Positions 1,621-46,146 of a stretch of DNA of 64,000 nt are shown here, piece by piece. The notes beneath the pieces are model-generated. The model did not search any database. It was not told the origin of the DNA and saw only the letters and a list, made by a program, of their open reading frames with translations. Numbering within the stretch: the stretch's first letter is position 1; each line of letters begins with the position of its first letter. Location of the stretch: positions 30,376-94,375 of the IMG/VR virus record IMGVR_UViG_3300044613_002694; one strand, written 5' to 3'. Source of the stretch: a virus (taxonomy: Duplodnaviria; Heunggongvirae; Uroviricota; Caudoviricetes). The position numbers and the translations under genes are program-made.

Positions 1621-1872
1621 TTGACACCTATGAATAACACTGATATAATGTACTTTGCAACAGTTAAATATACCGACACCCATCAAGCGATTTCATGGTG
1701 TCAAGATGTATTTGGTTATGATGAATTAGCTATTACTCATGAAATAAAGATTAAAGTATCAAAGAAAACTGATAGGTGGAATTTCGTGGGTCGATCATTA
1801 TTATCAGATGAATACTCATTTGTGTTTTGTAATGAATCCGATCGTAACTGGTTTTTATTAAGATGGACATGA
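1621..1872 (+). CDS. family A small paralog (C-terminal ...SDRNWFLLRWT)
   Basis: Track ORF; conserved C-terminal WFxLRW motif; stop overlaps next start. Confidence 0.55.
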   Translation: MTPMNNTDIMYFATVKYTDTHQAISWCQDVFGYDELAITHEIKIKVSKKTDRWNFVGRSLLSDEYSFVFCNESDRNWFLLRWT

Positions 1873-2066
1873 TCAAACTGGATATTAGAAAATATCAAAA
1901 ATTTAGACAAGAATGCTATAATAATTCTAAATTTGATAACGCATATACTTGGGTTGAAGCACTTCGAATTGCTGGATTTAAAACAGCAATATCATATGAT
2001 GGTTCATCTACTGGTATCCACCTCAGTGAAGAAGAATATACCTGGTTTGTAATAAGATGGAGTTAA
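1863..2066 (+). CDS. family A small paralog (...EEEYTWFVIRWS)
   Basis: Track ORF; motif; overlapping coupling. Confidence 0.55.
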   Translation: MDMIKLDIRKYQKFRQECYNNSKFDNAYTWVEALRIAGFKTAISYDGSSTGIHLSEEEYTWFVIRWS

Positions 2067-2067
2067 A

Positions 2068-2304
2068 ATGAAACACACACTAAACTCAGATAATCGCGAT
2101 AAGATATGGAGGCAATGGAATATAGAGAATGGATCTCCGCGATTCTACCATTCATATAACCGAGTCACCCGTGCATATACCGGTAAAAAATTTGAGGATT
2201 GGTTATTTGATAAAGGTGGTGTAATCAAACAACACTCCAGAAAACGTTATATCGAATTTATGACGGGTGAACAAGCAAATTGGTTCATACTAAAATACTT
2301 ATGA
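2068..2304 (+). CDS. family A small paralog (...EQANWFILKYL)
   Basis: Track ORF; motif. Confidence 0.5.
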   Translation: MKHTLNSDNRDKIWRQWNIENGSPRFYHSYNRVTRAYTGKKFEDWLFDKGGVIKQHSRKRYIEFMTGEQANWFILKYL

Positions 2305-2540
2305 AATTTAAATCATTTACAGCTACCAGAAAACGATACTTTAAACATGCGGTGGAAATACAACTTTCAACAATCAATTCCTATTCAATGTTTTATGAAT
2401 ACTCATGTTGGTGCATTGAAAATATGGGAAAATATAAGGGACGATGGTATTGGAAAAGTGGTGATGTATCAAAATGCCGAACTTATTATTTTAGAAATGA
2501 AGCCGACCGAACATGGTTTTTAATGAGATTTGCACAATGA
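2280..2540 (+). CDS. family A small paralog (...ADRTWFLMRFAQ)
   Basis: Track ORF; motif. Confidence 0.5.
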   Translation: MVHTKILMKFKSFTATRKRYFKHAVEIQLSTINSYSMFYEYSCWCIENMGKYKGRWYWKSGDVSKCRTYYFRNEADRTWFLMRFAQ

Positions 2541-2740
2541 AAGAATTTAAACTAGACGATTATCCAAAGTTTTACGCCATATTAAAACAAAAATATAGAG
2601 AAACTGGAAAACTGTATGTAGAAACATTTGCCGAGTATGGCTTTAAATCAGCATCCTATCATGAAAACATCAATGGCACTGGATGGAAATGGACATTGGA
2701 TGATTCCGAGTTTACATGGTTTACAATACAATGGACCTAA
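2513..2740 (+). CDS. family A small paralog (...SEFTWFTIQWT)
   Basis: Track ORF; motif. Confidence 0.5.
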   Translation: MVFNEICTMKEFKLDDYPKFYAILKQKYRETGKLYVETFAEYGFKSASYHENINGTGWKWTLDDSEFTWFTIQWT

Positions 2741-2988
2741 TTATGACAAAACGAATAATATTATCACCTAATAACAGCTTCGATCTAACTCCCACGTGGT
2801 GGAAAAATTTAGTCTATAATACTAATGGATCTTATGGTATTTCCGATAGGGACAATATCATGAACGAATATCACGCCAAAATAGTACGAGATTCGAACAA
2901 TATCATACAGTTCATTGAATTTGAAAAAGAACAATACTATACTTGGTTCCTTCTTAATATTAATTCTGACCCACACTTTCTATCATGA
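2716..2988 (+). CDS. family A-like small protein (divergent, ...YYTWFLLNINS)
   Basis: Track ORF; partial motif. Confidence 0.45.
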   Translation: MVYNTMDLIMTKRIILSPNNSFDLTPTWWKNLVYNTNGSYGISDRDNIMNEYHAKIVRDSNNIIQFIEFEKEQYYTWFLLNINSDPHFLS

Positions 2989-3413
2989 TTCAAGTAGTTG
3001 TATTAGAAGCATCGGATATAGTCCTAGCAACCGATTATTGCCGACCATTATCTTTATCATCCGGGTATGATGATGGGTATTCATTCACCAGTATGTATAG
3101 TGGTAGACCCATCAACAATGTTAAATGGACTCGGGTAGAACAAGTATTCGGACCAGTATGGTTTAACAAATCGGTTGAAACACTTAATGAAGCATTGGGG
3201 CTACATGAATTCATTCGTGGCAAATTACCAGAAACACATTTATATGGTAAGACCAAGGAAGAACAAGCAGCAGAGTATGATGAATATCTAAAATCAAATG
3301 TGTTCCCTTATGGTAAACATAAAGAACTAACATTCTATGAAGTTAGATATAAATTTCCTGACTATTTCAATTGGGCAGTTACCAAAGGAATTATTAAAGA
3401 TGAAATATATTAA
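2985..3413 (+). CDS. hypothetical protein (142 aa)
   Basis: Track ORF in the same operon; no motif recognised. Confidence 0.4.
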   Translation: MIQVVVLEASDIVLATDYCRPLSLSSGYDDGYSFTSMYSGRPINNVKWTRVEQVFGPVWFNKSVETLNEALGLHEFIRGKLPETHLYGKTKEEQAAEYDEYLKSNVFPYGKHKELTFYEVRYKFPDYFNWAVTKGIIKDEIY

Positions 3414-3636
3414 ACGACATATCAAAACATCAAAATTCCCATATGCAATTGAATTCATGTTTGATTCATCTGACCAAATAACCGAATCGGATGTATACCA
3501 ATGGTGTACAGAAAACTTTGGTGTGCCATCACCAGATGGTGATGAGATGGGATATAAATGGATCAAAAGCTTATTTGGATTACGATTCAAAGATGAAGCA
3601 CATTTAAATTGGTGTATTATGAGATTTTCATCATGA
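3400..3636 (+). CDS. family A small paralog (...AHLNWCIMRFSS)
   Basis: Internal ATG (MKYIKRH) overlapping the upstream stop; motif. Confidence 0.45.
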   Translation: MKYIKRHIKTSKFPYAIEFMFDSSDQITESDVYQWCTENFGVPSPDGDEMGYKWIKSLFGLRFKDEAHLNWCIMRFSS

Positions 3637-3818
3637 CTGTACTAGATATTCGAAACTTCCCGAAATTTGCAGACTATTGCCTCAGCAAATACACACCATA
3701 CGTAACATGGGAGATATGTATCAAATATGAAGGATTTGATGTAATTAGGGTTCGTGATTATCATTACGAGTTTCAAGATGTCGATGCAACCTGGTTCATT
3801 CTTAAATGGAGTAGTTGA
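3609..3818 (+). CDS. family A small paralog (...DATWFILKWSS)
   Basis: Track ORF; motif. Confidence 0.5.
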   Translation: MVYYEIFIMTVLDIRNFPKFADYCLSKYTPYVTWEICIKYEGFDVIRVRDYHYEFQDVDATWFILKWSS

Positions 3819-6668: not shown

Positions 6669-6709
6669 TTGACAAGAGTGTATTGTAGCAATATAATACA
6701 CTCTTTTTT
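6669..6709 (+). promoter_or_regulatory. overlapping terminator hairpin plus consensus sigma70 promoter (TTGACA-17-TATAAT)
   Basis: AGAGTGTATT...AATACACTCT perfect 10-bp stem followed by TTTTTT; -35/-10 embedded in the same stem. Confidence 0.5.
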
Positions 6710-6739: not shown

Positions 6740-6961
6740 ATGTCTTTTAAAGTAAAAATTATTCGAGTCCAATTCAAAACTTGGCGATCATGGAAAAACT
6801 GGGATGCTGGTAGACGGCAATGGGATGGTACTAATAAAAGTTATGGGCAGTATTGTGTTAAACATTATCCTATCTGCTTATCTGCTAACAGTGTATTTGG
6901 TGGAGTAGAATTTACGTTTGAATCAGAAGCACATTATCACTGGTTCTTATTACAACAATGA
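6740..6961 (+). CDS. family A small paralog (...FESEAHYHWFLLQQ)
   Basis: Track ORF; motif; ATGA overlap. Confidence 0.6.
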   Translation: MSFKVKIIRVQFKTWRSWKNWDAGRRQWDGTNKSYGQYCVKHYPICLSANSVFGGVEFTFESEAHYHWFLLQQ

Positions 6962-7194
6962 CTATTGAAATAATTGACAATTTTGGAGCCCCGATATCTA
7001 AATTTCCACTGATAAGTAAAGCTTGGTGCATGAATTATACACATTCTACCGATTTTGCCCAATGGGTTAAAGACACCTTTCCTGAAATTATAGATGTTAA
7101 CAGAATGGGTGGATACTATCTGAAAGATTACCCAGCTTACCGATATACATTTAAATCCGAAGCACATTTCACTTGGTTTTTATTACAACAATGA
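6958..7194 (+). CDS. family A small paralog (...FKSEAHFTWFLLQQ)
   Basis: Track ORF; motif. Confidence 0.6.
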   Translation: MTIEIIDNFGAPISKFPLISKAWCMNYTHSTDFAQWVKDTFPEIIDVNRMGGYYLKDYPAYRYTFKSEAHFTWFLLQQ

Positions 7195-7409
7195 TTTACC
7201 AACTAACAATACATAGCAGAATAGCTGGTAAATGGGCAACCACTAGAATGTACGTCCATGATTTCCAGTTCCAAGGTAAATTACCCAATTGGCTAATGCA
7301 CCACCATGACGAAATCATTCACGCCGAGTATCACCATGGGGATCGAATGTACCTAAACATAACCTTTAATTCAGAAGCACATTATCACTGGTTTTTATTA
7401 CAACAATGA
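7173..7409 (+). CDS. family A small paralog (...FNSEAHYHWFLLQQ)
   Basis: Track ORF; motif. Confidence 0.6.
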   Translation: MVFITTMIYQLTIHSRIAGKWATTRMYVHDFQFQGKLPNWLMHHHDEIIHAEYHHGDRMYLNITFNSEAHYHWFLLQQ

Positions 7410-7663
7410 CATTTCAAATAGAAGATTCTTGGGCAGCACCTTATTCTAGATTCACAGGGTGTTATAAAAAATGGTGTGAAATAGTAGATATCAGTTCCAG
7501 AAACCATCTCGATGCACCTGATTTTTTTACCTGGATTAAAGAAACATTCCCTGAGATAATAAAGATTGAAACAGTTGATGAACATGACTATGAATATTTA
7601 ACTTTTAAATATACATTTAAATCTGAAGCACATTACACTTGGTTTTTATTGAGGTGGTCATGA
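7406..7663 (+). CDS. family A small paralog (...FKSEAHYTWFLLRWS)
   Basis: Track ORF; motif. Confidence 0.6.
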   Translation: MTFQIEDSWAAPYSRFTGCYKKWCEIVDISSRNHLDAPDFFTWIKETFPEIIKIETVDEHDYEYLTFKYTFKSEAHYTWFLLRWS

Positions 7664-7881
7664 ATTACGAAATTATATTACCCAGCAACATATACAGAGC
7701 ATGGGATTCCTTCAAAGAATATACCAATGTAGCTGATATGTTGTCATTCAAAGATTTTATTATGGAAAACTACCAAGAATGCGTATCAGTAGCATATACG
7801 ATACCATCACCGAGGTTACTGGATATGACTTTTACATTTAAATCTGAAGCGCATTACACTTGGTTTTTATTAAAACAATGA
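7639..7881 (+). CDS. family A small paralog (...FKSEAHYTWFLLKQ)
   Basis: Track ORF; motif. Confidence 0.6.
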   Translation: MVFIEVVMNYEIILPSNIYRAWDSFKEYTNVADMLSFKDFIMENYQECVSVAYTIPSPRLLDMTFTFKSEAHYTWFLLKQ

Positions 7882-8078
7882 GTTATACAATCGCAGTCCA
7901 AGCTTCCACATTTAATTTTTTTGGTAAATGGCGAGAAGCTGGGTTCGTTGGTACTTTCTCTGATTTTGTATTTACTAGGTACCCTGATATACTGGATTTC
8001 AGGGTATGGGGGCATTCGGAGTATCTACTGACTTTTGAAACAGAAGCGCATTACACTTGGTTCTTACTAAAACAATAA
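7860..8078 (+). CDS. family A small paralog (...FETEAHYTWFLLKQ)
   Basis: Track ORF; motif. Confidence 0.6.
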   Translation: MVFIKTMSYTIAVQASTFNFFGKWREAGFVGTFSDFVFTRYPDILDFRVWGHSEYLLTFETEAHYTWFLLKQ

Positions 8079-9260: not shown

Positions 9261-9485
9261 ATGACTGAACTTGTAATTGCCTACAAATCTAAACTTGATG
9301 ATAAGTTGTATGAATTATATACACAGCGCGGTTACCGTGGTGATTGCGGTTACCGTGGTGGTTGGTTTGGTTTTATTAGAAGTTTAGATCCAAAAATTAT
9401 AAGTGTATATAAACGTAATTGGGACACACATATTGCATTTGAAGGCGAAGAATATAGAAATTGGTTTATTTTGAGGTGGTCATGA
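9261..9485 (+). CDS. family A small paralog (...EEYRNWFILRWS)
   Basis: Track ORF; motif. Confidence 0.55.
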   Translation: MTELVIAYKSKLDDKLYELYTQRGYRGDCGYRGGWFGFIRSLDPKIISVYKRNWDTHIAFEGEEYRNWFILRWS

Positions 9486-20694: not shown

Positions 20695-20910
20695 ATGTGT
20701 TTTTCAGAAATTGTATCACTAGGTTTTTACGCAATTCCTATAATTATTAATTTTACATTTTTTTATTTTATAAGTCGTAATGAACGATTAAAACGAAGGA
20801 TGGGTGATAATCTGGATTGTTCTATGTTCTTTTCATGTATACCAGTGGCGAACATTTGTGTTAGTATACCGTTAATATTTAATTATTTAAATTACAGGTT
20901 ATCTCGATAG
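20695..20910 (+). CDS. small membrane protein
   Basis: Track ORF; hydrophobic. Confidence 0.4.
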   Translation: MCFSEIVSLGFYAIPIIINFTFFYFISRNERLKRRMGDNLDCSMFFSCIPVANICVSIPLIFNYLNYRLSR

Positions 20911-21122
20911 TGAGTTACTCAGTAAACTTACGATTTAAAACGTATCGGCATTGGAATACTTTCAAAGAATGGTGTGAATCTACCTATCATCAACATACGA
21001 ATTATGCTATCTATCTTCAACATATGCATGAAGATTTGATTGAATCGGTTAATATTAATAATTCACCAGAAATAACATTTAAATCAGAAGCACACTACCA
21101 TTGGTTTTTATTACAACAATAG
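20910..21122 (+). CDS. family A small paralog (...FKSEAHYHWFLLQQ)
   Basis: Track ORF; motif. Confidence 0.55.
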   Translation: MSYSVNLRFKTYRHWNTFKEWCESTYHQHTNYAIYLQHMHEDLIESVNINNSPEITFKSEAHYHWFLLQQ

Positions 21123-25143: not shown

Positions 25144-25408
25144 AGAAATTGGGTTTGTTCCTAAATCATTTGAACGAAAATATCGTGCAGTTATTACTGA
25201 TGGTGGGAATTTATCAGATATGAAACAATTCTGTAATCGATTTGATAGTGTTGTATACCATCGAACAAGACAAAATTATCATAATAGATTCGCACAACCA
25301 TTTAAGGAAATTAAAAGTTTTGATGTGTTTTATTTTAAAGAAGCCAAATACCAAGAATGGTTTATATTGGCATTTAGCGAATATATTATTCAATGGGAGT
25401 GGGATTAA
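25136..25408 (+). CDS. family A small paralog (...KYQEWFILAFSEYI)
   Basis: Motif. Confidence 0.5.
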   Translation: MLKEIGFVPKSFERKYRAVITDGGNLSDMKQFCNRFDSVVYHRTRQNYHNRFAQPFKEIKSFDVFYFKEAKYQEWFILAFSEYIIQWEWD

Positions 25409-26263: not shown

Positions 26264-26573
26264 ACAACTATCAGTAAATGAAGCATGGGCTTTTTTAAAA
26301 GAAGTCACTAAAAGAGGAACCAATTCTTTATCAAAAGAAGAATTGGTCAAATACCATGAATGTCGTAAAATTACACTTAATGCAAGAAAACCACCATCGG
26401 TTCATACCAGACATCAAGTAGTTGATCATGAAACGTTTGGTGGTACAACTTATAGAATTACCAAGGAATTGGATATCACTATTACCGATATTTGTGATAT
26501 GAGTGACGATGATATCTTGCAACTGATTGATGTAAAATCAACATTGGCTTATATTAGATCTACTTTGATATGA
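26256..26573 (+). CDS. hypothetical protein
   Basis: Track ORF. Confidence 0.4.
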   Translation: MSEQLSVNEAWAFLKEVTKRGTNSLSKEELVKYHECRKITLNARKPPSVHTRHQVVDHETFGGTTYRITKELDITITDICDMSDDDILQLIDVKSTLAYIRSTLI

Positions 26574-26782
26574 TCATAGAAATTTTCGATGCAGGGATTG
26601 CGTTTAAATTTAAATTCGGTGCTGACGTTCTTCGTACTCATGATGAAATACGAAACACAAATCAACAAGAAATGGAGCTATGGTGTAAAGACCAATTTGG
26701 TAGCCAATTTACATCACGGTATAATCATTTTTACTTTGCCAACGAAGAACAACGTAATTGGTTTATTTTGAGGTGGTCATGA
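26570..26782 (+). CDS. family A small paralog (...EEQRNWFILRWS)
   Basis: Motif; ATGA overlap. Confidence 0.55.
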   Translation: MIIEIFDAGIAFKFKFGADVLRTHDEIRNTNQQEMELWCKDQFGSQFTSRYNHFYFANEEQRNWFILRWS

Positions 26783-26982
26783 GTGTTCTATATTTAAAAG
26801 GAGATACAGTAAACAAAAACATTACACAACTGTTTTGTAAAGCCGGTCCTCAACACCTATGGTATGATTTTGTTAAAAGTTTAGATCCAAATATCATTAA
26901 AGTTGAGTGCGTGAAAGGATTCACTCGGATTACCTTTAAGAGTGATGAACATAAGACTTGGTTTATTTTGAGGTGGTCATGA
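26758..26982 (+). CDS. family A small paralog (...SDEHKTWFILRWS)
   Basis: Motif; near-identical tandem duplicate of the next gene. Confidence 0.6.
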   Translation: MVYFEVVMSVLYLKGDTVNKNITQLFCKAGPQHLWYDFVKSLDPNIIKVECVKGFTRITFKSDEHKTWFILRWS

Positions 26983-27185
26983 GTGATCTAGATTTAAAAG
27001 AGGGCAGTACAGTAGGTCATAACATTACACTACTGTATTTGAAAACCGAGACTCACCAACGATGGCTTAATTTTGTTAAAAGTTTAGATCCAAATATCAT
27101 TAAAGTTGAGGGTGTGGATGGCATTACTCGGATTACCTTCAAGAGTGATGAACATAAGACTTGGTTTATTTTGAGGTGGTCATGA
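26958..27185 (+). CDS. family A small paralog (...SDEHKTWFILRWS)
   Basis: Recent duplicate of 26758-26982. Confidence 0.6.
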   Translation: MVYFEVVMSDLDLKEGSTVGHNITLLYLKTETHQRWLNFVKSLDPNIIKVEGVDGITRITFKSDEHKTWFILRWS

Positions 27186-27430
27186 AATTATATTTAGAAT
27201 ACGATGAATTTTTAGAAAGTCAACCAAGCTGGTGGCAGAATTTCATCAAAGATGTTGATACTCGGTTAAAATTAGAACCAGGCAAATTTTCAGAAGGTCG
27301 TTCTATCATCATAAAAAAAGAACTAAAATTAGCAGGTGCTGTTAAGGTGGATGATAAAGAATGCGAAGAATCATATTTAGAATTTTTTGATGATTCAAAA
27401 GCAACCTGGTTTATGTTGAAATACTCATGA
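27161..27430 (+). CDS. family A small paralog (...SKATWFMLKYS)
   Basis: Motif. Confidence 0.5.
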   Translation: MVYFEVVMKLYLEYDEFLESQPSWWQNFIKDVDTRLKLEPGKFSEGRSIIIKKELKLAGAVKVDDKECEESYLEFFDDSKATWFMLKYS

Positions 27431-27666
27431 AATTAACAACTATCAATACCAGTGATTTCGATTTTGTTCATGATTGTCCATATGGCTTGGAATTTATTTT
27501 AGCTGACATTATGACAATATCAGTAATGCGGGTCTGGTGTAAGAAAAATTTCCGTACCTATAATTATTATTGGGAATGGTCCCCTGCTGGAACTGTGAGA
27601 ACGTTTTGCTTTAGTTCAGAAGAAAACCGATCCTGGTTTATACTTAAATTTTCGGAGTACCTATGA
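27427..27666 (+). CDS. family A small paralog (...ENRSWFILKFSEYL)
   Basis: Motif. Confidence 0.55.
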   Translation: MKLTTINTSDFDFVHDCPYGLEFILADIMTISVMRVWCKKNFRTYNYYWEWSPAGTVRTFCFSSEENRSWFILKFSEYL

Positions 27667-27902
27667 ATGCGGTTATTGATAATATATTGGATCATGCACA
27701 TTGTAAATTCCCTGTAAAAATAAAAGACGATTACGGTATATTTTCAGAAATAATTTCAGAAATGACCCAATGGTGCAGAGACCATATTGGTACATATTAC
27801 TTTACGTGGGATTGGGTAGTATATCGTGGTGTAAAAATGTTTTATTTTGAAAAAGAACATCACCGAACCTGGTTTATCATTAGATTTTCGGAGTACTTAT
27901 GA
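27663..27902 (+). CDS. family A small paralog (...HHRTWFIIRFSEYL)
   Basis: Motif. Confidence 0.55.
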   Translation: MNAVIDNILDHAHCKFPVKIKDDYGIFSEIISEMTQWCRDHIGTYYFTWDWVVYRGVKMFYFEKEHHRTWFIIRFSEYL

Positions 27903-28099
27903 GCGATGGTTATAACGATCCATTCCCATGGAAAGTACAGTTTAAGCCAAGCCGATATTTTCCAAAATATTATAATGAAATGGCAGATTTTTGTAATAAA
28001 ATGACAGATCATTGGGGAAGTGTAGAGTATACGTTTATGTTTGCATACGAAGAACATATGAACTGGTTTATACTTAATTTTTCGGAGTACTTGGAATGA
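27899..28099 (+). CDS. family A small paralog (...EHMNWFILNFSEYLE)
   Basis: Motif. Confidence 0.55.
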   Translation: MSDGYNDPFPWKVQFKPSRYFPKYYNEMADFCNKMTDHWGSVEYTFMFAYEEHMNWFILNFSEYLE

Positions 28100-28344
28100 G
28101 TTTTTACATAGCAACCATACCATTTAAAGAATGGATAACTGATCCTATGCAACGCCCAATCGTTTACGTAAGTATGATTGAATGGTGCAAGGAAAATATA
28201 GAACCAAGACATCAACCAGAATCACCACACTACTGGTTCCCTAGAGCATTTCGTGGTAGAACTGGTGTGTATAAATTTCATTTTAGAGATGAACAAGACT
28301 ACAATAACTTTGTTCAACATTTTAAGTTAACAGGTGTGATATGA
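28096..28344 (+). CDS. family A-like small protein (divergent)
   Basis: Position in the array; weak motif. Confidence 0.35.
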   Translation: MSFYIATIPFKEWITDPMQRPIVYVSMIEWCKENIEPRHQPESPHYWFPRAFRGRTGVYKFHFRDEQDYNNFVQHFKLTGVI

Positions 28345-36276: not shown

Positions 36277-36498
36277 TCAACTCCATCTGATGATGGCTAA
36301 TGTTATTTTTACTGGATCACCTTGGTAAATTTCAAGATAAGTTTCGTCTGTTTCTGGACTTAATTTTGCATAGGTAACAATCATCCAGTTTGCACCGTCA
36401 TTGTGATAACCGAATTTTTTAGTCATCCATTGATAGACTTCAACATAATTACGTTTGGATATTTTAATTTTAGTCATGACCACTTGATTACAAACCAA
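36277..36498 (-). CDS. family A-like small protein (...VKITLAIIRWS)
   Basis: C-terminal RWS; divergent. Confidence 0.45.
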   Translation of the reverse strand: MVCNQVVMTKIKISKRNYVEVYQWMTKKFGYHNDGANWMIVTYAKLSPETDETYLEIYQGDPVKITLAIIRWS

Positions 36499-36707
36499 TT
36501 CCTGTGCTCTGCTTTTCTGAAGGCGAAAATATCACAATCATCAATCTCTGCATACGAATTGTACCACATTAGTTCACCAAACGTTGTATCACACCATTCA
36601 AACATATCTTGGAACACCTCGTCTTCACCATATCTATCATAAAGCTTTATTCTATCATCATGATAGAGTAAAGCCTGATAAACATATTCTTCTGTATGAA
36701 CTTGCAT
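36474..36707 (-). CDS. family A small paralog (...AEHRNWFVIKWS)
   Basis: Motif. Confidence 0.55.
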   Translation of the reverse strand: MQVHTEEYVYQALLYHDDRIKLYDRYGEDEVFQDMFEWCDTTFGELMWYNSYAEIDDCDIFAFRKAEHRNWFVIKWS

Positions 36708-37509: not shown

Positions 37510-37564
37510 TCTTAACTCCAAAATGATAAAAATTCATTATATCAAATTGAATTAAGAATGTCAA

Positions 37565-37765
37565 TTATGACAATTTGAGTCGGTAGAAAGTTGCATGTTC
37601 AGGGCGTTTAAAATAAAAACATGCTCTTTGTGGATAGGATTTTATTTCAAAATCAAAATCAATGCCTTGAATTAACCCGATATCACGTAATTCCCTGATA
37701 AAGATCATGATTTCTTTTGCGAATGTAAAATGTATGGTTACAATGTTATCGCGTATTTTTTTCAT
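37565..37765 (-). CDS. family A-like small protein (...PEHATFYRLKLS)
   Basis: Divergent motif. Confidence 0.4.
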   Translation of the reverse strand: MKKIRDNIVTIHFTFAKEIMIFIRELRDIGLIQGIDFDFEIKSYPQRACFYFKRPEHATFYRLKLS

Positions 37766-39604: not shown

Positions 39605-39966
39605 GGTGTGTCCTTGATTGGTGTTTTATTACCGTCTTTATCAATTGCTACAAATGTGATTTCTGTTGTGAATACTAATTCATTATTTCTGTTTAAACAG
39701 AATACATCAATGTTGAAAGTCGCTGATGTCGTGCCTTTTTTTATCAACTTTGTGTCAAATTCAAGGATAGAACCCGCTGGCATACTTTTATGAAATACAA
39801 CCTGGTTCAATCCAACTGTGACAAATTCGTGTCCTGGAAATTCAACATTGACTGCAACATATCCAACGGTATCGATCCACTTTAACATCTCGCCGCCAAA
39901 AAGAAACCCGTAATGGTTTAAATGGCTTTGTAAAACTAATTTGTGTTGTTTCATTGGTCTCCCCAT
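39601..39966 (-). CDS. hotdog-fold acyl-CoA thioesterase (YciA-like)
   Basis: HYGFLFGGEMLKWIDTVGYVAV...TVGLNQVVFHKSMPAGSILEF...KGTTSATFNIDVF. Confidence 0.55.
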   Translation of the reverse strand: MGRPMKQHKLVLQSHLNHYGFLFGGEMLKWIDTVGYVAVNVEFPGHEFVTVGLNQVVFHKSMPAGSILEFDTKLIKKGTTSATFNIDVFCLNRNNELVFTTEITFVAIDKDGNKTPIKDTP

Positions 39967-40157
39967 GTAAGTTGAAGTACGGTATATAATTCTTCATTGA
40001 TAGTATATGAAACCCCGTGATTAGAATGTTCAATATGATACCATAGTCTTTGTGGTTGTTTTACTATCCAGTGTATCAATTTATGATCCTGGACGTCTAT
40101 ACGATACCAATAATCATTCATTAAGCTGTTATAATGCTTATCTACTACTGTGAACAT
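39951..40157 (-). CDS. family A small paralog (...EELYTVLQLTWGDQ)
   Basis: Motif. Confidence 0.45.
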   Translation of the reverse strand: MFTVVDKHYNSLMNDYWYRIDVQDHKLIHWIVKQPQRLWYHIEHSNHGVSYTINEELYTVLQLTWGDQ

Positions 40158-40167: not shown

Positions 40168-40437
40168 TTACTTTCCCCATTTCAATAAAAACCAAGTTTT
40201 GTCAGTTTCCGATAATTCTGCCATTACTTGGTATCTGTTGCAATCAAATGCATAATCGGCGACTCCTAAAACCCTAATTGATTTACTTCGTCGTTTCACC
40301 CATCGCCCAATTTCTGATTCATAGAATTTGTCGAGTATTTCGTTATATGGGTCATAATCTGGACCGTTCATAGTGGCTGGGTACATGTATGAAAGATTGG
40401 ATATTATAAACTCATGTACACACATTATTTCATTCAT
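40168..40437 (-). CDS. family A small paralog (...TDKTWFLLKWGK)
   Basis: Motif. Confidence 0.55.
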   Translation of the reverse strand: MNEIMCVHEFIISNLSYMYPATMNGPDYDPYNEILDKFYESEIGRWVKRRSKSIRVLGVADYAFDCNRYQVMAELSETDKTWFLLKWGK

Positions 40438-40628
40438 TTATCCCCCCACATTAATACATACCATGAAAAATCTGCTTCATTTTTGAAATAGATATAATTA
40501 TTTTTAATGAACCATCTAGTACCAAGATTTCCAAAGTTCTTGGCGCACCAATCATACTTTTCACCGGGTGAATTGCGAATTCGTAATCCATGGTACTCTA
40601 TAAGTTGCTGTGTTTCAATTTTCATCAT
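40434..40628 (-). CDS. family A small paralog (...EADFSWYVLMWGDK)
   Basis: Motif. Confidence 0.55.
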   Translation of the reverse strand: MMKIETQQLIEYHGLRIRNSPGEKYDWCAKNFGNLGTRWFIKNNYIYFKNEADFSWYVLMWGDK

Positions 40629-40899
40629 ATCCAGACCATTTTATATTAACCCAATTATACATTGCCCGAGCTGATTCTTCCGATTCTACCTTCCATGACA
40701 TTGGACCCAATGAATTAACTAACGAATTACATATAAAAAACTCTTTAATATCTGCTATTTCTTTTTCAGATAACCAAACCTTTGCAGTTGGTGTTAATGA
40801 AACCGCCCAATACTCTTTATTTTTAACACAACAATGCAAAAGTGTAAAATTCTTTGATTTTTGTAAAAGGGTATAATGGGTATGCATTATGCTTCCCAT
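40615..40899 (-). CDS. family A small paralog (...MYNWVNIKWSGYDEN)
   Basis: Motif. Confidence 0.5.
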   Translation of the reverse strand: MGSIMHTHYTLLQKSKNFTLLHCCVKNKEYWAVSLTPTAKVWLSEKEIADIKEFFICNSLVNSLGPMSWKVESEESARAMYNWVNIKWSGYDEN

Positions 40900-41126
40900 T
40901 TCAACACAAACATTGTGTATAGTTCTTCTTTAATAGCATAATCAACAATAGTCATGCATTCGGTCCTCTTCCATAATGACACATTACAAGTTTTAACCCA
41001 TCTACGTATTTCTGCTGAATATATGCGTAAATAGTACCATTTGTTATTATTCTTATCGGTTTCAATCTCATACATATTGAATTTCTTATTACTAGCAACA
41101 ATTGGTCTGATTATTTTATTGGTCAT
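40887..41126 (-). CDS. family A small paralog (...EELYTMFVLKWEA)
   Basis: Motif. Confidence 0.5.
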   Translation of the reverse strand: MTNKIIRPIVASNKKFNMYEIETDKNNNKWYYLRIYSAEIRRWVKTCNVSLWKRTECMTIVDYAIKEELYTMFVLKWEA

Positions 41127-41328
41127 GGTATCCCCATTTCAATACAAACCATGTATAATTTTCATCCGTAAATTCGATTTCGTAAAACCCATCAATTTCA
41201 ATGACAGTACATCTGTAAGTAGTTTCAAACTGATCAATGAACTTACCATCGGATAATCCTTTGTGTTCTATGAAATATCGATTCAAAATAGGCCATATAG
41301 TATGATTATTCAATTTAAGTCTAACCAT
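41116..41328 (-). CDS. family A small paralog (...DENYTWFVLKWGYHDQ)
   Basis: Motif. Confidence 0.55.
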   Translation of the reverse strand: MVRLKLNNHTIWPILNRYFIEHKGLSDGKFIDQFETTYRCTVIEIDGFYEIEFTDENYTWFVLKWGYHDQ

Positions 41329-41584
41329 GAGATCCCCATTTTAAAATAAACCAGGTGTAATCCTCATCTTTGAACGTCAATGTCCATTCACCAAATGAAA
41401 TTTCCTCAGTAGTGCATCTAAATGTTTTGTGAAACAATTCCATATATTCGTGAGTGAGGAGATCAGCATTGGCGTAATAAAATTCTTGAATTGAATGTCT
41501 TGCTTTATCTGGCAGTTCATATATCGCTTTAGTAATCATATTATCACACGTGTAACATAAACCAAGTAAACCGTTCTTTAACAT
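41321..41584 (-). CDS. family A small paralog (...DEDYTWFILKWGSHG)
   Basis: Motif. Confidence 0.55.
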   Translation of the reverse strand: MLKNGLLGLCYTCDNMITKAIYELPDKARHSIQEFYYANADLLTHEYMELFHKTFRCTTEEISFGEWTLTFKDEDYTWFILKWGSHG

Positions 41585-41686
41585 AGGCAGTCATTGTCAA
41601 TGACGGCTTTTCATGATCCCGTAGAGATATCAATCGCTCATATTGCGACGTGTTTAATTTAATACTCTTTTTCATAAAATCTCAAT

Positions 41687-41884
41687 TTAAGCTGACCATC
41701 GTATCGCAAATATCGTAAATAAATCTTCTCGGATGTCAAATGATGATATACCAGCAGTATCAACCCATTTTTCTGAAGATTGATTGCGTATCCACCGCCA
41801 TATATCTGAATCAAGGGTATGAATGGCGTACCAAACATACCCGTCATCACATAGACATGAACATAGAATTGTGTATTTCATCAA
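41687..41884 (-). CDS. family A small paralog (...EDLFTIFAIRWSA)
   Basis: Motif. Confidence 0.5.
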   Translation of the reverse strand: MMKYTILCSCLCDDGYVWYAIHTLDSDIWRWIRNQSSEKWVDTAGISSFDIREDLFTIFAIRWSA

Positions 41885-42093
41885 GCTTTTTTATTAATCT
41901 GATCAGTCCATCTCAAAATAAAGAAATCACGATGTCCTTCGTTTTTAAAACTCCAAAGACGATCAGTCATAAAAATACCACATTTTGAACTAACCGACCA
42001 TTCAATCATTTCGTCACGTAATTCGTCTGTCATTTCCTCTTTATCAAAAGATAAACCTGGAAGTTTGAATAAGCCGCACTGTACCATTTTCAT
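41881..42093 (-). CDS. family A small paralog (...GHRDFFILRWTDQ)
   Basis: Motif. Confidence 0.5.
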   Translation of the reverse strand: MKMVQCGLFKLPGLSFDKEEMTDELRDEMIEWSVSSKCGIFMTDRLWSFKNEGHRDFFILRWTDQINKKA

Positions 42094-42237
42094 ATTATAT
42101 TCCTAATTCAAAGATTGTGTTGTAAAGGTTGAATAATTCTTCATCTGATAAATTATACACATCAGTAACCCGTATGTCAAATATTTCTTCCAAGGATTCA
42201 TCCCAGTGGTTAGCAATCCGTTCTAGTATTAAATCTC

Positions 42238-42570
42238 TCATTTTAAAAACTCGCTGTATTTAATCAAGAAAAACGTGCGTTTAGCTTCATCGTAAAAATC
42301 TAATTTGATCATCTTTTTTGCCTCTTTTCTTTGAGGTTCATACAGAAATAATGAACTGAATGAAGACTGTTCAGCTTCCAGGTAACTCTTATATTCCGCT
42401 GCATATTTAGGATTATCAACCCATTCGGTATGTTCACGCGGAGTAAACCCAAGTACACGTTTTGTTTTTTCTCTGAGTGCTAGCACACTTGGAGGATAAT
42501 CGTTGTGTAATTCTAACAACAACTTTTTCCATTGTTCTTTTGTAATTGATATAGGTTTCATGCCATCCAC
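42238..42570 (-). CDS. family A small paralog (...AKRTFFLIKYSEFLK)
   Basis: Motif. Confidence 0.5.
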   Translation of the reverse strand: MDGMKPISITKEQWKKLLLELHNDYPPSVLALREKTKRVLGFTPREHTEWVDNPKYAAEYKSYLEAEQSSFSSLFLYEPQRKEAKKMIKLDFYDEAKRTFFLIKYSEFLK

Positions 42571-42824
42571 CTTAATTTAAACCATGTCATTTGCGCTCTT
42601 TTAACTATTCTGGCATCAAATTTCACATATATATTTTCTTTAATCACATACCCAGTATCATCGTCAAATACAGATTTTAAATATAATTCCCAATTATATC
42701 CTGCACGATACCATGTATTGGACAATTGCAATACTTCTGGACCTACATTTTTAATTAGCCACTCCACAAGTTGATTAGCCTCGTATGAGTGGACATCATC
42801 TAAATTTGTTATTTTTCTACGCAC
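42558..42824 (-). CDS. family A small paralog (...AQMTWFKLRWMA)
   Basis: Motif. Confidence 0.5.
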   Translation of the reverse strand: MRRKITNLDDVHSYEANQLVEWLIKNVGPEVLQLSNTWYRAGYNWELYLKSVFDDDTGYVIKENIYVKFDARIVKRAQMTWFKLRWMA

Positions 42825-43095: not shown

Positions 43096-43384
43096 ATACT
43101 TCCCATGTATTATTTAAATAATCCCAATGTCTACTATCATAGACTGATATTGCAAATTGATATCCTAAAATACCAATCTCTAACTTTGGACCTGCGTGAT
43201 CTTCACCTAACCAACTAATGACCAGGTTAAGTTCAAACAAGTTCCAATCATAATGCATCAGTTGTAATTCCCAATGCTTGTGTGGATTAAATGATCCGCT
43301 TTTGAACCATAAATTCTCAAAATTACTATTTTTGAAAAAAGGATTTTTTATTTGTAAATTAAATTTGATCATGAATGACTCCAA
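43064..43384 (-). CDS. hypothetical protein
   Basis: Track ORF. Confidence 0.4.
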   Translation of the reverse strand: MESFMIKFNLQIKNPFFKNSNFENLWFKSGSFNPHKHWELQLMHYDWNLFELNLVISWLGEDHAGPKLEIGILGYQFAISVYDSRHWDYLNNTWEVYDNREENENT

Positions 43385-43653
43385 CGTAAATTAAACCAAT
43401 TTGCCATTTCTGGTCTTTCAAACCAGAATTCATGTCGCAAAAATTTAATTTCAAAAGTGTTAGGATCGATCACCGGTTTGCCTTGATTAGCATAAAAAAA
43501 TGAATCACTATTTTGCTCACGACACCATGTAATCATGTCATCGTATACTCCAACAGGAACTGATCTATTGATGGTAATTTTGGTCCAAGAATCATGTTGT
43601 TTGATATCTACTGAACGTCTCATAAAACCATTCCTATATATCCAATATAACAC
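43369..43653 (-). CDS. family A small paralog (...EMANWFNLRWSHS)
   Basis: Motif. Confidence 0.5.
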   Translation of the reverse strand: MLYWIYRNGFMRRSVDIKQHDSWTKITINRSVPVGVYDDMITWCREQNSDSFFYANQGKPVIDPNTFEIKFLRHEFWFERPEMANWFNLRWSHS

Positions 43654-43967: not shown

Positions 43968-44300
43968 TCACCCATTATTTTTTTCAAGCACTTCTTCAGC
44001 TTTGCATAGTTGCTTAATCATATCATATTGACCTTTGGCACTAGCTAATGCTGGATATTTTTCGATTAAAATTTGTTCTTCTTTTTCTTCAATCATTTTT
44101 TTACATGCCCAATCTAACGCCTGTTCAGCGTTTGACGTTAACCCAACTATCCCATTCTCAGATGCTATTGGTGTCCAACTATAACCAGTATATGCTTCTA
44201 AATGACCATCTTGTATTCGTAATGAACCGGATGTTATTGAAGAACTGCCATTTGAATGACACAATATATGTGAGCTATTACTTTGTATTCCATGTATCAT
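43968..44300 (-). CDS. hypothetical protein
   Basis: Track ORF. Confidence 0.4.
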   Translation of the reverse strand: MIHGIQSNSSHILCHSNGSSSITSGSLRIQDGHLEAYTGYSWTPIASENGIVGLTSNAEQALDWACKKMIEEKEEQILIEKYPALASAKGQYDMIKQLCKAEEVLEKNNG

Positions 44301-44478
44301 GTTTTTTAAGATTCCATTTTAATAATAAAAAAGTTAAATCTGACTCATTAGTTAAGTCAAGATATGTTAATTCTCGTAAATCCCATCGATCATTTAATCC
44401 AGGTGGACCCCAATGAGTACACATCCAAGTGAAAATTTCCATTGGTCGATCAAACTGATTTAAATCTACTGTTTTCAT
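44278..44478 (-). CDS. family A small paralog (...SDLTFLLLKWNL)
   Basis: Motif. Confidence 0.5.
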   Translation of the reverse strand: MKTVDLNQFDRPMEIFTWMCTHWGPPGLNDRWDLRELTYLDLTNESDLTFLLLKWNLKKHDTWNTK

Positions 44479-44774
44479 ATTCCATATTTTATTTTGAACA
44501 AAAAATATTTGTGTTCGTTTACTATTACTGCCGCATCTACATCAACTTGACCTTCACGCATTGGTATGTTCAACCCATAGGTGTCTTTAATATGTGATAG
44601 TAACGAAGTGATACTCCAGTTACTGTTACTATTTGCATAATCATCCCGTATTTCTCGTAATACCACAATCATTCGATTTCTAAAGGTTCGCTGTTTTTCT
44701 AACTCTTTTGCATACTGTTTAGTGTCATCAGCTAATTCTTTAAGTGTTTTTTCTGCTATTTTATTCATGACCAT
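44475..44774 (-). CDS. hypothetical protein
   Basis: Track ORF. Confidence 0.4.
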   Translation of the reverse strand: MVMNKIAEKTLKELADDTKQYAKELEKQRTFRNRMIVVLREIRDDYANSNSNWSITSLLSHIKDTYGLNIPMREGQVDVDAAVIVNEHKYFLFKIKYGI

Positions 44775-45037
44775 CTCAGTAAAAACCAGGTATAATTTGC
44801 ATCGTCCTCAAATTCTGCATATTTTGGCTCATCGTATGACGGCTTAATCTTACATTTATTTTCTTGTTCAAAATGCTTATAAACTAGTTCCATTTGTTTA
44901 GAGAATACCTGATCAAGATTGCCAGTGAATTCAACCATCGGCGAATGTGCAACCGAATATTTACTGGCTTTACGAACAGCGACATCCCTAGTAAGCGATA
45001 ATTTTTTCATCAAGCACCCCATCTTATAATAAACCAA
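44765..45037 (-). CDS. family A small paralog (...DDANYTWFLLRWS)
   Basis: Motif. Confidence 0.55.
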   Translation of the reverse strand: MVYYKMGCLMKKLSLTRDVAVRKASKYSVAHSPMVEFTGNLDQVFSKQMELVYKHFEQENKCKIKPSYDEPKYAEFEDDANYTWFLLRWS

Positions 45038-45366
45038 TTTCTGTCAGCTGCATTTCGGAAAATAAATCGATCATCAGGTACTAATTTCCACCGATCACCT
45101 AGAATTTCTCCGAATACTTCTTCACACCATTTAACGCAGTCTTGAACATGGATCTTACTACTTGGACTAACCCAATATACATAATCTTGGTAATCAGTAT
45201 AATCATCGCCTTGACGCAATGGTCTTGTATCATATCGCGTTCTCAATGAAAATATCTGACCAGCTTGGCTTGTCATTGGTTGAACCCCCACGATATTTTG
45301 TGCAATCAATTCTGGTTGTACTCTGCGTATCATTGACAAAATTGATTGTTTTGATAACTCTTTCAT
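45010..45366 (-). CDS. family A small paralog (...AADRNWFIIRWGA)
   Basis: Motif. Confidence 0.55.
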   Translation of the reverse strand: MKELSKQSILSMIRRVQPELIAQNIVGVQPMTSQAGQIFSLRTRYDTRPLRQGDDYTDYQDYVYWVSPSSKIHVQDCVKWCEEVFGEILGDRWKLVPDDRFIFRNAADRNWFIIRWGA

Positions 45367-45390
45367 AATCCACTCCTTGGATTTTAATAA

Positions 45391-45597
45391 TTATTCTGAT
45401 ATCCATCTTAATGTGAACAAAGTGCAATCCATCTCTCTATACAATGTGAGAATGCCACCTTGCATATTAAACTTCATTTTTCGTTCAGTGAGCCACTCTG
45501 CTACTTCATTCCATTCTCTCGTGTCTAATCCTTTATTGCCATTATCTTTGCTCAATATAAAACTATTGTGCTCAAACGGCATTTTTTTAATTCTCAT
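45391..45597 (-). CDS. family A small paralog (...MDCTLFTLRWISE)
   Basis: Motif. Confidence 0.5.
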   Translation of the reverse strand: MRIKKMPFEHNSFILSKDNGNKGLDTREWNEVAEWLTERKMKFNMQGGILTLYREMDCTLFTLRWISE

Positions 45598-45598
45598 G

Positions 45599-45844
45599 TT
45601 AACTCCATTTTAATAAAAACCAATTCCTATCAATCTCATTTGCGAACCATATATATGAAAATGTATATGACCATCTCTCATTTTGGGTCTCACACCAACC
45701 ATCACCACCAAATTGTTGTGATGCCCATTCAATTATTTCAGGATATTCGTCATAAAAACCATCCCCTAAATAAACTGCATATGGATGCACGTTTGCTGAA
45801 AAAAATTCAGTACTTATCTTATATTGTTTTTTCATCAGCCCCAC
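45599..45844 (-). CDS. family A small paralog (...EIDRNWFLLKWS)
   Basis: Motif. Confidence 0.55.
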   Translation of the reverse strand: MGLMKKQYKISTEFFSANVHPYAVYLGDGFYDEYPEIIEWASQQFGGDGWCETQNERWSYTFSYIWFANEIDRNWFLLKWS

Positions 45845-46146
45845 CGTAATGCAAACCAGTTCTTATCTTCTTCACTTTTTATAAGTATTCTAGCAGGAGT
45901 TCCCTCATATGGACTAGTCCAACACCATCTTTCATTGACTATTGGCTTGTTATGAATCATTAACTCCATGAATTCATTTAATGAGCAACTAGGACCAAAT
46001 GTTTCCCAACACCATTGACGCATTTCACAGAATTTTGCTGTTCGATCACCTTGTTGCCAAGAAGGTTGCCATCTGAAAACCATGCTGTATTTGAAGTATT
46101 GATGACCGGTGTATCGCTTGTCTAACTTTGATATCGCTATATTCAT
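45835..46146 (-). CDS. family A small paralog (...EEDKNWFALRWG)
   Basis: Motif. Confidence 0.55.
   Translation of the reverse strand: MNIAISKLDKRYTGHQYFKYSMVFRWQPSWQQGDRTAKFCEMRQWCWETFGPSCSLNEFMELMIHNKPIVNERWCWTSPYEGTPARILIKSEEDKNWFALRWG

Follow-up and report, generated by a model that had tools for sequence, protein, structure and literature searches.

A large family of small single-domain proteins in overlapping gene arrays of an uncultured jumbo phage, with a possible role in host targeting

Why would a phage devote a sizeable part of its genome to dozens of copies of one small-protein gene? The window analysed here, a stretch of 64,000 nt, is part of the ~367-kb genome of an uncultured jumbo phage with several T4-type genes, and hidden Markov model (HMM) searches and tail matches place 41 to ~50 paralogues of a single family in it (Table 1). 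Specifically, a regular expression for the C-terminal motif finds 33 clear members, an HMM iterated within the window recovers 36 open reading frames (ORFs) at E<1e-3, and one iterated over the window and related loci recovers 41 at the same threshold. About nine additional ORFs carry the same tail (...AIIRWS, ...FVLKWEA, ...FAIRWSA, ...FLIKYSEFLK) with marginal HMM scores or BLASTP links only. The ~45-50 paralogues counted in the sequence-only reading are thus borne out by the 41 HMM members together with these tail-bearing ORFs, and the array coordinates are likewise correct on both the plus strand (1630-3818, 6740-8078, 9261-9667, 20910-21122 with a GTG start, and 24847-28344) and the minus strand (36277-37765 and 39951-46146). 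Together, 47 family ORFs occupy 11,160 nt (17.4% of the window), within the 15-20% first estimated. The proteins span 60-118 aa, with net charges of -10 to +9 and pI values of 4.4-9.9, and the accessory genes interleaved with the arrays include NADAR, NAMPT and an NMNAT-Nudix fusion.

Table 1 Family members and predicted promoters in the window. E-values are from the HMM iterated over the window and related loci, unless 'window HMM' is stated.
Feature	Position	Strand	Evidence
Terminator-like stem-loop (1592-1613), then perfect TTGACA-17-TATAAT promoter (1621-1649); PeSL-like composite heading array 1	1592..1649	+	
Member; start uncertain because ORF overlaps promoter 1621-1649	1630..1872	+	E 3.5e-10
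Member; alternative ATG at 1869 gives ATGA overlap	1863..2066	+	E 2.1e-7
Member	2068..2304	+	E 9.2e-5
Member	2301..2540	+	E 3.1e-12
Member	2537..2740	+	E 7.4e-4
Member; short C-terminal extension	2743..2988	+	E 2.6e-6
Member; ORF open from 3337	3400..3636	+	E 1.5e-11
Member; array 1 final gene	3633..3818	+	E 1.1e-7
Perfect σ70-consensus promoter, 43 nt upstream of array 2	6669..6697	+	
Member; ...SEAHYxWFLLQQ subfamily	6740..6961	+	E 4.5e-6
Member	6958..7194	+	E 1.4e-10
Member; His-rich (10 His)	7191..7409	+	E 3.3e-7
Member; AF2 model pLDDT 86	7406..7663	+	E 1.4e-13
Member	7660..7881	+	E 8.1e-13
Member; array 2 final gene	7878..8078	+	E 4.4e-7
Member; internal 18-nt tandem duplication at 9329-9364	9261..9485	+	E 1.4e-7
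Member; protein 95% identical to copy in divergent contig L027	9482..9667	+	E 1.8e-11
Isolated member; GTG start, ...WFLLQQ subfamily	20910..21122	+	E 3.7e-8
Possible divergent member; tail ...ITFKDQEHFKQFIEQ	24847..25143	+	window HMM marginal, E 1.2
Member	25136..25408	+	E 6.3e-6
Member	26570..26782	+	E 3.8e-15
Member; recent tandem pair, copy 1	26779..26982	+	E 1.1e-11
Member; recent tandem pair, copy 2; other allele in strain L007	26979..27185	+	E 9.8e-12
Member	27182..27430	+	E 2.5e-6
Member; ...FSEYL tail	27427..27666	+	E 2e-14
Member; ...FSEYL tail	27663..27902	+	E 3e-14
Member	27899..28099	+	E 1.9e-8
Member; degenerate tail	28096..28344	+	E 2.9e-8
Member	36277..36477	-	E 1.2e-8
Member; AF2 model pLDDT 93	36474..36707	-	E 4.3e-12
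Perfect σ70-consensus promoter	37536..37564	-	
Divergent member	37565..37765	-	window HMM E 0.25; iterated HMM E<1e-2
Divergent member	39951..40157	-	window HMM E 0.075; BLASTP link to 40887-41126
Member	40168..40437	-	E 4.8e-5
Member	40434..40628	-	E 5.3e-12
Possible divergent member	40615..40899	-	window HMM E 0.048
Divergent member	40887..41126	-	iterated HMM E<1e-2; BLASTP link to 39951-40157
Member	41116..41328	-	E 8.1e-6
Member	41321..41584	-	E 3.4e-8
Short member (43 aa), possibly truncated	41544..41675	-	window HMM E 0.25
Divergent member; tail ...FAIRWSA	41687..41881	-	
Member	41881..42093	-	E 2.4e-11
Perfect σ70-consensus promoter inside minus-strand array	42152..42180	-	
Divergent member; tail ...FFLIKYSEFLK	42238..42561	-	window HMM E 0.01; family-flagged in related-loci comparison
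Member; GTG start	42558..42824	-	E 9.6e-7
Member	43369..43623	-	E 1.7e-11
Member	44278..44478	-	E 7.9e-8
Possible divergent member	44475..44774	-	window HMM E 0.088
Member	44765..45022	-	E 1.6e-8
Member; Gp23 fragment (T4-type major capsid protein) as first ~45 residues	45010..45366	-	E 3e-15
Member	45391..45597	-	E 2.1e-5
Member	45599..45835	-	E 2e-14
Member; minus-strand array gene 1	45835..46146	-	E 1.1e-12
Perfect σ70-consensus promoter heading minus-strand array	46153..46181	-	

HMM results and junction counts support the view of one large paralogous family in polycistronic arrays. By eye, 38 of 49 stops overlap the start of the next gene (27 by ATGA, 5 by a single base in TAATG or TGATG and 6 by 8-14 nt), and the final codons (AGG TGG TCA TGA, or TCG GAG TAC) double as a Shine-Dalgarno-like sequence for the following gene, with GAGGTGG or GGAG inside the terminal codons. 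Perfect TTGACA-N16-18-TATAAT sites number 12 against 0.15 expected, and several directly head arrays, in keeping with the early-type promoters proposed before several of them; these promoters are predicted purely by match to the σ70 consensus. Early transcription of the arrays would then fall to the host's RNA polymerase and translation would be coupled, the terminal codons of one gene often providing the ribosome-binding site for its successor.

Such junctions raise the question of whether a nucleotide repeat, or the Shine-Dalgarno and junction sequence itself, merely produces look-alike ORF ends, the more so as the junction TTTATTTTGAGGTGGTCATGA is present in exactly four identical copies. 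This explanation, extremely improbable in our assessment, is refuted on several counts. Codons in the conserved tail vary at synonymous sites (TTT/TTC, TCA/TCC/TCT, AGA/AGG/CGT/CGG/AAA), the motif is retained in array-end members and in the isolated member, a second conserved block lies upstream of the tail, AlphaFold2 (AF2) models are confident, and distant homologues such as that of Sinorhizobium phage Phosso have different DNA. Moreover, every family copy is under purifying selection, about twice as relaxed as in neighbouring genes (strain-level pN/pS of 0.21-0.39 versus 0.11-0.17). The motif-bearing ORFs are therefore alike beyond chance and, as pN/pS between strains and AF2 confidence indicate, genuine genes.

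What kind of protein do they encode? The sequence-only reading had envisaged a conserved C-terminal module for partner binding or targeting, attached to a separate hypervariable N-terminal part. This division is not supported: AF2 models of two divergent subfamilies fold the whole 76-85 aa as one compact β-α-α-β-β-α domain (pLDDT 93 and 86), with a predicted layout, β1-α1-α2-β2-β3-α3, that is ferredoxin-like minus the last strand. Since AF2 gives a single domain, the C-terminal motif corresponds to the β3-α3 core and the 'hypervariable N-terminus' to the remainder of this one fold, not to a module of its own. Nor is conservation confined to the C-terminus, because the block h-x-x-W-C-x-x-x-F-G recurs ~35 residues upstream of the tail, giving the signature h-x-x-W-C-x-x-x-F-G ... 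W ... F-x-F-x-x-E-x-D-x-x-W-F-x-L-[RK]-W-[SG], in which W, C, W, F and W are nearly invariant in two alignments. Judging from predicted secondary-structure positions, β3 and α3 appear to contribute the conserved W, F, L and W to the core, and [SN]-E-x-[DH] resembles a helix N-cap. The conserved aromatics would then form the fold core and the remainder a variable surface.

The β-α-β-β-α order is shared with ferredoxin-like α/β domains (EF-G domains III/V, RRM, KH and ACT), as is an aromatic-rich β3 leading into a helix with an acidic start. The family could accordingly comprise small RRM-, KH- or ACT-like binders of RNA, ribosome or DNA that act in early infection, for example by modulating translation or mRNA stability. 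The predicted similarity of the fold to the ferredoxin-like domains of EF-G, RRM, KH and uL10 points in this direction, as do a very high aromatic content (18% of residues) and the F-x-F strand and E-x-D helix, which presumably resemble the RNP1-to-α2 region of RRMs; we regard this role as unlikely.

The family does not correspond to a known domain family, as searches of Pfam, PHROGs, NCBIfam and PDB sequences returned no match, and no solved structure specifically matching it was found. Metagenomic relatives form 678 representative clusters at E<=1e-3, and one member is encoded by a cultured phage, Phosso. The motif DRNWFxL[RK]W was found in 34 IMG/VR stretches, as against 2 doubtful hits among 185,579 prokaryotic genomes, so that, on sequence evidence, the family is apparently phage-specific and virtually missing from cellular genomes. 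Its expansion had been called unusual for a phage: the copy number is indeed exceptional, but same-family arrays are also present in numerous related viral contigs from metagenomes, reaching 19-22 copies. Homology searches found nothing tying any member to a host target, defence system or known activity.

Comparison of closely related strains supports the proposed ongoing turnover, with allele replacement in both L007 and L016. All full-length genes with less than 94% DNA identity in these two strains are HMM-flagged family members; just one more gene falls under 95% (41690-41881, at 94.8%), a divergent member without an HMM flag, and no non-family gene matching at full length drops below 97.7%. 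In L016, a strain otherwise 99-100% identical, DNA identity falls to 78.6% for 41116..41328 and to 84.8% for 45391..45597. A tandem pair (26779-26982 and 26979-27185) had been described as near-identical; it is indeed recent, but the proteins are just 72% identical and near-identity is limited to the 3' 60%, since DNA identity is 71% in the first 84 alignment columns and 91% in the last 123. The diverged 5' part has a pN/pS of 1.7, a value from small counts (26 substitutions in a single gene pair), the conserved 3' part 0.23, and both slots carry different alleles in L007. Growth and turnover of the family may thus proceed by tandem duplication and recombination between the conserved 3' ends.

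Copy swapping between near-identical strains is as expected for proteins in conflict with the host. Divergent alleles could also stem from recombination with co-circulating phages, without selection for diversity, and syntenic orthologues of some members at 70-75% protein identity in related phages suggest that part of the family has stable housekeeping-like roles and is not in an arms race; for 41881..42093, protein identity to the syntenic orthologues of related phages is 69-75%, and the allele nonetheless varies among close strains. Alternatively, the genes might be largely selfish or neutral cargo, small cassettes that spread and persist through easily recombining conserved 3' ends and junctions with little benefit per copy, much as small ORFs are shuffled in the hyperplastic regions of T4. 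A contig in which the genes alongside reach 38-57% identity carries one copy at 94-95%, alleles and slot order differ between strains, homing-endonuclease and TnpB insertions inside the arrays are polymorphic, and gene fragments (Gp23, YmdB) are fused to members. Such a passive origin is nevertheless doubtful, as it sits poorly with the pN/pS range across copies, a fold kept across at least 678 clusters, stable syntenic orthologues for several members and proteins without nuclease or transposase features.

In T4-type phages, hyperplastic regions hold small ORFs of obscure function between conserved genes, with early σ70-type promoters, and close relatives differ by ORF insertion, deletion or replacement there (PMC2839356, PMC4122927). 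Small-ORF clusters, early-type promoters and strain replacement are common to both systems, whereas the shuffled T4-type ORFs are mostly mutually unrelated and recombine at intergenic promoter-early stem-loops (PeSLs), in contrast to ~45-50 paralogues of one fold and a repeat formed by the coding 3' end and junction here. A PeSL-like stem-loop and promoter composite (1592-1649) does head array 1, but most junctions, unlike those of PeSL regions, lack intergenic space.

The T-even internal-protein (IP) locus also consists of a polymorphic set of variable small genes sharing a short conserved segment and differing in the remainder, and is associated with counter-defence (IPI* against GmrSD). There, the common signal is an N-terminal capsid-targeting peptide cleaved off by the prohead protease. 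By analogy, the family might be packaged and injected with the DNA, the shared motif acting as an assembly or targeting signal, and one conserved subfamily, comprising six of 97 database relatives and 45010-45366 (Pfam Gp23 positions 5-48, E 5.6e-13), begins with the T4-type capsid protein's best-conserved N-terminal segment. A virion location is, however, improbable: the arrays lie behind predicted σ70-type early promoters rather than late ones, no motif common to the N-termini was found in the family alignment, and the conserved block is modelled as part of the fold core, not a peptide signal. The copy number is also about tenfold higher than at the IP locus.

Host-takeover modules, such as Bacillus phage SPO1 gp37-60 and the T4 early 'monkey-wrench' proteins, are a further parallel, in which dozens of small early genes in operon-like clusters with strong host-type promoters yield products thought to disable host proteins by binding them; such genes mostly share no sequence relationship, whereas here a single fold family has expanded. 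In the multigene-family expansions and 'genomic accordions' of large eukaryotic DNA viruses (poxvirus K3L amplification and ASFV MGF families), recombination under pressure from the host enlarges and diversifies tandem paralogue arrays, and copy content varies between strains as it does here; viruses, hosts and proteins are unrelated. We give an even chance to the reading that the family comprises diversified, early-expressed binders that target the host, in takeover or anti-defence, on one shared scaffold. Each member would then present a different surface on this minimal scaffold and would target a different host or defence protein.

The sequence-only reading had proposed a strongly expanded family of small proteins, and our survey confirms it: 41 ORFs were recovered at E<1e-3 by an HMM iterated on the window and related loci, and ~9 further ORFs carry recognisable tails (AIIRWS, FVLKWEA, FAIRWSA, FLIKYSEFLK and others) with a marginal HMM score or a BLASTP tie to the family. 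Within the window, 33 clear ORFs were picked by a regular expression for the C-terminal motif, and an HMM built from these and iterated on all stop-to-stop ORFs reached 36 at E<1e-3. Together, 47 family ORFs sum to 11,160 nt (17.4% of the window), and the arrays lie where that reading had placed them (see the table). Neighbouring genes are tightly packed: at 49 stops inspected by eye, the next start is joined by an ATGA overlap in 27 cases, by a one-base overlap in 5 and by an overlap of 8–14 nt in 6.

A sequence artefact, such as a nucleotide repeat, is effectively excluded. Codons vary synonymously inside the conserved block, with arginine and lysine written as AGA, AGG, CGT, CGG or AAA, and pooled pN/pS across strains 97–99.9% identical is 0.21–0.39 for family genes versus 0.11–0.17 for neighbouring genes. 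Selection on the family is thus purifying, yet more relaxed than on its neighbours, and together with the synonymous variation identifies genes rather than a DNA repeat. Two minus-strand ORFs ending in ...CCNKNQ (6940-7167 and 7388-7585) were rejected as genes, being antisense shadows (the reverse complement) of the conserved ...WFLLQQ-stop block. Only 20 members are linked by direct pairwise BLASTP and most pairs are 15–30% identical in the alignment of the 36 window members (A1), which indicates an old and diverse family without a recent burst.

The interpretation accompanying the initial observation holds in part: the expanded paralogous family in overlapping arrays stands, whereas the model of a separate C-terminal module does not. 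Alignment A1 and a second one of 97 database relatives (A2) reveal another conserved block, h-x-x-W-C-x-x-x-F-G, ~35 residues ahead of the tail, giving the overall signature WCxxxFG ... W ... FxFxxExDRNWFxLRWS. AlphaFold2 models of member 36474-36707 (pLDDT 93) and of the divergent member 7406-7663 (pLDDT 86) have a common topology, β1-α1-α2-β2-β3-α3, indicating that the family proteins are single-domain. What had been taken for a C-terminal module corresponds to β3 and α3 of this predicted fold, and the ‘hypervariable N-terminus’ to β1-α1(-α2) of the same fold. Judged by their place in the predicted elements, the conserved aromatic and aliphatic residues look like core residues. The members span net charges of -10 to +9 and pI values of 4.4 to 9.9, which suggests very different surfaces among them. 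Nucleic-acid binding is a rival account of what these proteins do. RRM/ferredoxin-like (βαββαβ) proteins have a four-stranded antiparallel sheet in β1α1β2β3α2β4 order, and the modelled topology may be a version of this layout that lacks the last strand.

No curated HMM matched the conserved domain among the window members scanned against Pfam-A (20 members), PHROGs v4 (10) and NCBIfam (36), nor did the 97 relatives match it in Pfam or PHROGs, where the only matches fell on fused fragments (Gp23 and, in one relative, YmdB). A profile search of PDB sequences gave a best E of 0.3, and the weak forkhead matches at that value were dismissed as chance. Foldseek found no PDB match at E<=1e-3, BFVD returned only uncharacterised proteins of uncultured phages, and literature searches turned up no relevant account of such an expanded family of small proteins in jumbo phages. 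Scans of the window against Rfam and for tRNA genes gave no hits.

The real breadth of the family is visible only by exhaustive profile search, which retrieved 678 representative clusters at E<=1e-3 from 1.84 billion representatives; two word-indexed protein searches gave close orthologues only. The inspected profile-search matches are short proteins with the domain at the C terminus, and one relative (P0039) has two family domains in tandem. Several metagenomic contigs are 99.8–99.98% identical to the window, a 367,267-bp JGI contig is ~99.5% identical, and further IMG/VR contigs, some of 372–400 kb, also carry family arrays. Related loci reach 19–20 members in 13 kb (L027) and 19–22 in 20 kb (L007 and L008). 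Against 50,697 phage records, neither tblastn with two individual members, even at E<=1, nor megablast with window positions 1-12000 returned anything. The cultured 469-kb Sinorhizobium phage Phosso encodes at least one member (a hypothetical protein in its annotation), which was reached only with a consensus-like tblastn query (E 0.06) and then confirmed by HMM. Searched as two degenerate DNA patterns, the motif DRNWFxL[RK]W turned up in 34 stretches of IMG/VR and, across 185,579 prokaryotic species genomes, in only 2 doubtful places, both in metagenome-assembled genomes; going by this motif, the family appears to be specific to phages. We conclude that the expanded family is real, single-domain and apparently phage-specific, and that it is organised in operon-like arrays of overlapping genes.

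The tail is likely dual-coded, serving also as the ribosome-binding site of the next gene: its final codons (AGG TGG TCA TGA, AAA TGG GGA, TCG GAG TAC) put GAGGTGG or GGAG just 5' of the following ATG. The LLQQ-stop subfamily is devoid of these sequences and has the ATGA overlap alone. Within member 9261-9485, an 18-nt direct tandem duplication at 9329-9364 (CGGTTACCGTGGTGATTG / CGGTTACCGTGGTGGTTG, encoding GYRGDCGYRGGW) was called a hairpin by the terminator scan.

A consensus scan detected 12 perfect TTGACA-N16-18-TATAAT sites in the window, against 0.15 expected by shuffling, and those checked against adjacent genes have the orientation of the genes downstream, which implies that the host σ70 holoenzyme is used heavily. 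At the head of the first array, a terminator-like hairpin precedes the promoter, forming a stem-loop-plus-promoter composite (1592-1649); no counterpart was seen ahead of the other arrays or between the overlapping members. The composite resembles the promoter-early stem-loop cassettes of T4-type hyperplastic regions (PMC2839356, PMC4122927). Like those regions, several of the window arrays consist of small non-core ORFs behind early σ70-type promoters, as far as a consensus scan identifies them, and the window and its strains likewise differ by insertion, deletion and replacement, as close relatives do there. Features of this kind are already known, both as small early genes clustered in the plastic regions of large phages and as expansions of multigene families in viruses; new are the expansion of a single fold to 45–50 copies, the probable dual use of the coding junction and the absence from all curated libraries.

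Family arrays, perfect σ70-type promoter sites and other features by window position
Feature	Position	Strand	Remark
Family array	1630-3818	+	
Family array	6740-8078	+	
Family array	9261-9667	+	
Family array	20910-21122	+	
Family array	24847-28344	+	
Family array	36277-37765	-	
Family array	39951-46146	-	
Perfect σ70 site	1621	+	directly heads array
Perfect σ70 site	6669	+	directly heads array
Perfect σ70 site	46181	-	directly heads array
Perfect σ70 site	42180	-	within minus-strand array
Perfect σ70 site	37564	-	starts immediately downstream of member 37565-37765
Perfect σ70 site	39034	+	adjoins TnpB gene
NADAR-domain gene	3864-4385		interleaved with family arrays
Fused NMNAT-Nudix gene	22753-23775		interleaved with family arrays
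NAMPT gene	30641-32104		interleaved with family arrays
IS605-type OrfB/TnpB insert	37825-39122		in minus-strand array
TnpB ORF	37831-39012	-	
Homing-endonuclease-like gene	50640-51611	-	GIY-YIG/SegE-like with NUMOD3
Second small paralogous family	10645-13546		at least 6 tandem ORFs, 60-99 aa
Repeat protein	8361-8732		MORN-like by eye
Repeat protein	22172-22687		MORN-like by eye

The surrounding genes are of accessory type (among them HD-domain, NADAR, Bax-inhibitor-like, NAMPT, NMNAT-Nudix fusion, thioesterase and band-7 protein). NAMPT, NMNAT-Nudix and NADAR make up a toolkit for NAD+ salvage and ADP-ribose; toolkits of this type are reported to act against defences that deplete NAD+. Other small proteins are also repeated in the window. 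Members of the second paralogous family start with MNEKIKE..., contain FAELIIKEC and end in HFG[VI][EK]. The two repeat proteins carry a W-Y/W-L-N-G-x-x-H-R-E-D-G-P-A motif and have a near-identical C terminus, [IV]A[ED]IEQLLGYKVKIVDK; an expansion of related repeats is present in the related locus L030.

Allele replacement between strains is concentrated in the family genes. In strains L007 and L016, all full-length genes below 94% DNA identity to the window are HMM-flagged family members, namely 41119-41328 (78.6%), 45394-45597 (84.8%) and 41884-42093 (87.1%) in L016 and 26979-27182 (87.3%) in L007. Just one further gene falls below 95% (41690-41881, 94.8%), and it is a divergent member left unflagged by the HMM; among non-family genes with a full-length match, identity is never below 97.7%. 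The tandem pair 26779-26982 / 26979-27185, 72% identical as protein, is 71% identical in DNA over its 5' 84 columns and 91% over its 3' 123 columns, with a pN/pS of 1.7 in the N-terminal part (3.5 synonymous versus 22.5 non-synonymous changes) and of 0.23 in the tail. In L007, 98.6% identical overall, the slots of this pair are occupied by a third allele and, after it, a copy of the first gene of the window pair. Member 9482-9667 shares 94% DNA identity and 95% protein identity with 9303-9515 of L027, where flanking genes are only 38–57% identical in protein; this contrast points to lateral exchange and suggests that a single cassette was recently transferred. Selfish cassettes, spreading for their own sake, are a rival reading of such mobility. 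Members 41881-42093, 45391-45597 and 44278-44478 have syntenic orthologues in more distant relatives (47–75% protein identity), so that the family mixes stable and fast-changing members.

Recognisable mobile genes are polymorphic as well. The TnpB gene (domains HTH_OrfB_IS605, OrfB_IS605 and Cas12f1-like TNB) occurs in the window, L002, L003, L005 and L006 but is missing from the otherwise ~99.5% identical L001, L004, L007 and L016. Homing-endonuclease-like genes vary among strains, one lying at 8117-9088 of L001; L001, L004 and L007 have an insert at the site corresponding to window 41983-42093, annotated as a homing-endonuclease gene in L001 and L004.

In one subfamily, the proteins open with the N-terminal segment that is most conserved in the T4-type major capsid protein, Gp23. 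The first 44 residues of member 45010-45366 match Pfam Gp23 (PF07068) at positions 5–48 (E 5.6e-13); a match across the capsid fold was not found, only these of the 376 profile positions being covered and the remainder being the family domain. The architecture recurs in 6 of the 97 relatives and in L008 (127-243), L022 (9761-9862) and L027 (11425-11541), and is thus conserved. The 44 residues are 49% identical to what we take to be roughly residues 88–132 of T4 gp23, presumably the part of the protein that carries the Gol peptide, which the Lit protease senses. The fragment may be a decoy, an assembly signal or a recombination relic. For two relatives (P0091 and P0100), fusion to a GRQTGKS-like Walker-A fragment of a terminase was considered and rejected for want of Pfam support. 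That the family proteins are packaged internal proteins is a further rival; T-even internal proteins have an N-terminal capsid-targeting sequence, whereas the family is without one, only Met1 being invariant N-terminally in alignment A1.

We infer that the family comprises diversified host-targeting binders, for takeover or anti-defence, on a common scaffold. The arrays would be transcribed early by the host polymerase, overlapping genes would be translationally coupled, and recombination would take place at the conserved 3' ends. An elaboration that we regard as improbable would have the arrays act as a recombination-driven repertoire, in which the conserved coding 3' end and junction would form part of the fold core, provide the ribosome-binding site for the next gene and supply the homology through which cassettes are exchanged, with phage populations continually reshuffling and replacing scaffolded binders to counter host defences and some members acting as decoys that display fragments of defence-sensed phage proteins, such as the capsid segment of 45010-45366.

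Small ORFs without assigned function make up most genes of large phages, and here one uncurated fold family accounts for 17% of 64 kb. The family is widespread in metagenomes, apparently restricted to phages, and marks loci that differ among otherwise identical strains. Its one scaffold exists in many natural versions, an HMM is at hand and the structure models are confident, making it a defined and tractable target for studying how jumbo phages diversify early host-interaction proteins and for annotating hundreds of blank phage proteins. Should its members turn out to act in takeover or anti-defence, the arrays would be rich in new inhibitors and would provide a phage case of repertoire evolution through tandem paralogy.
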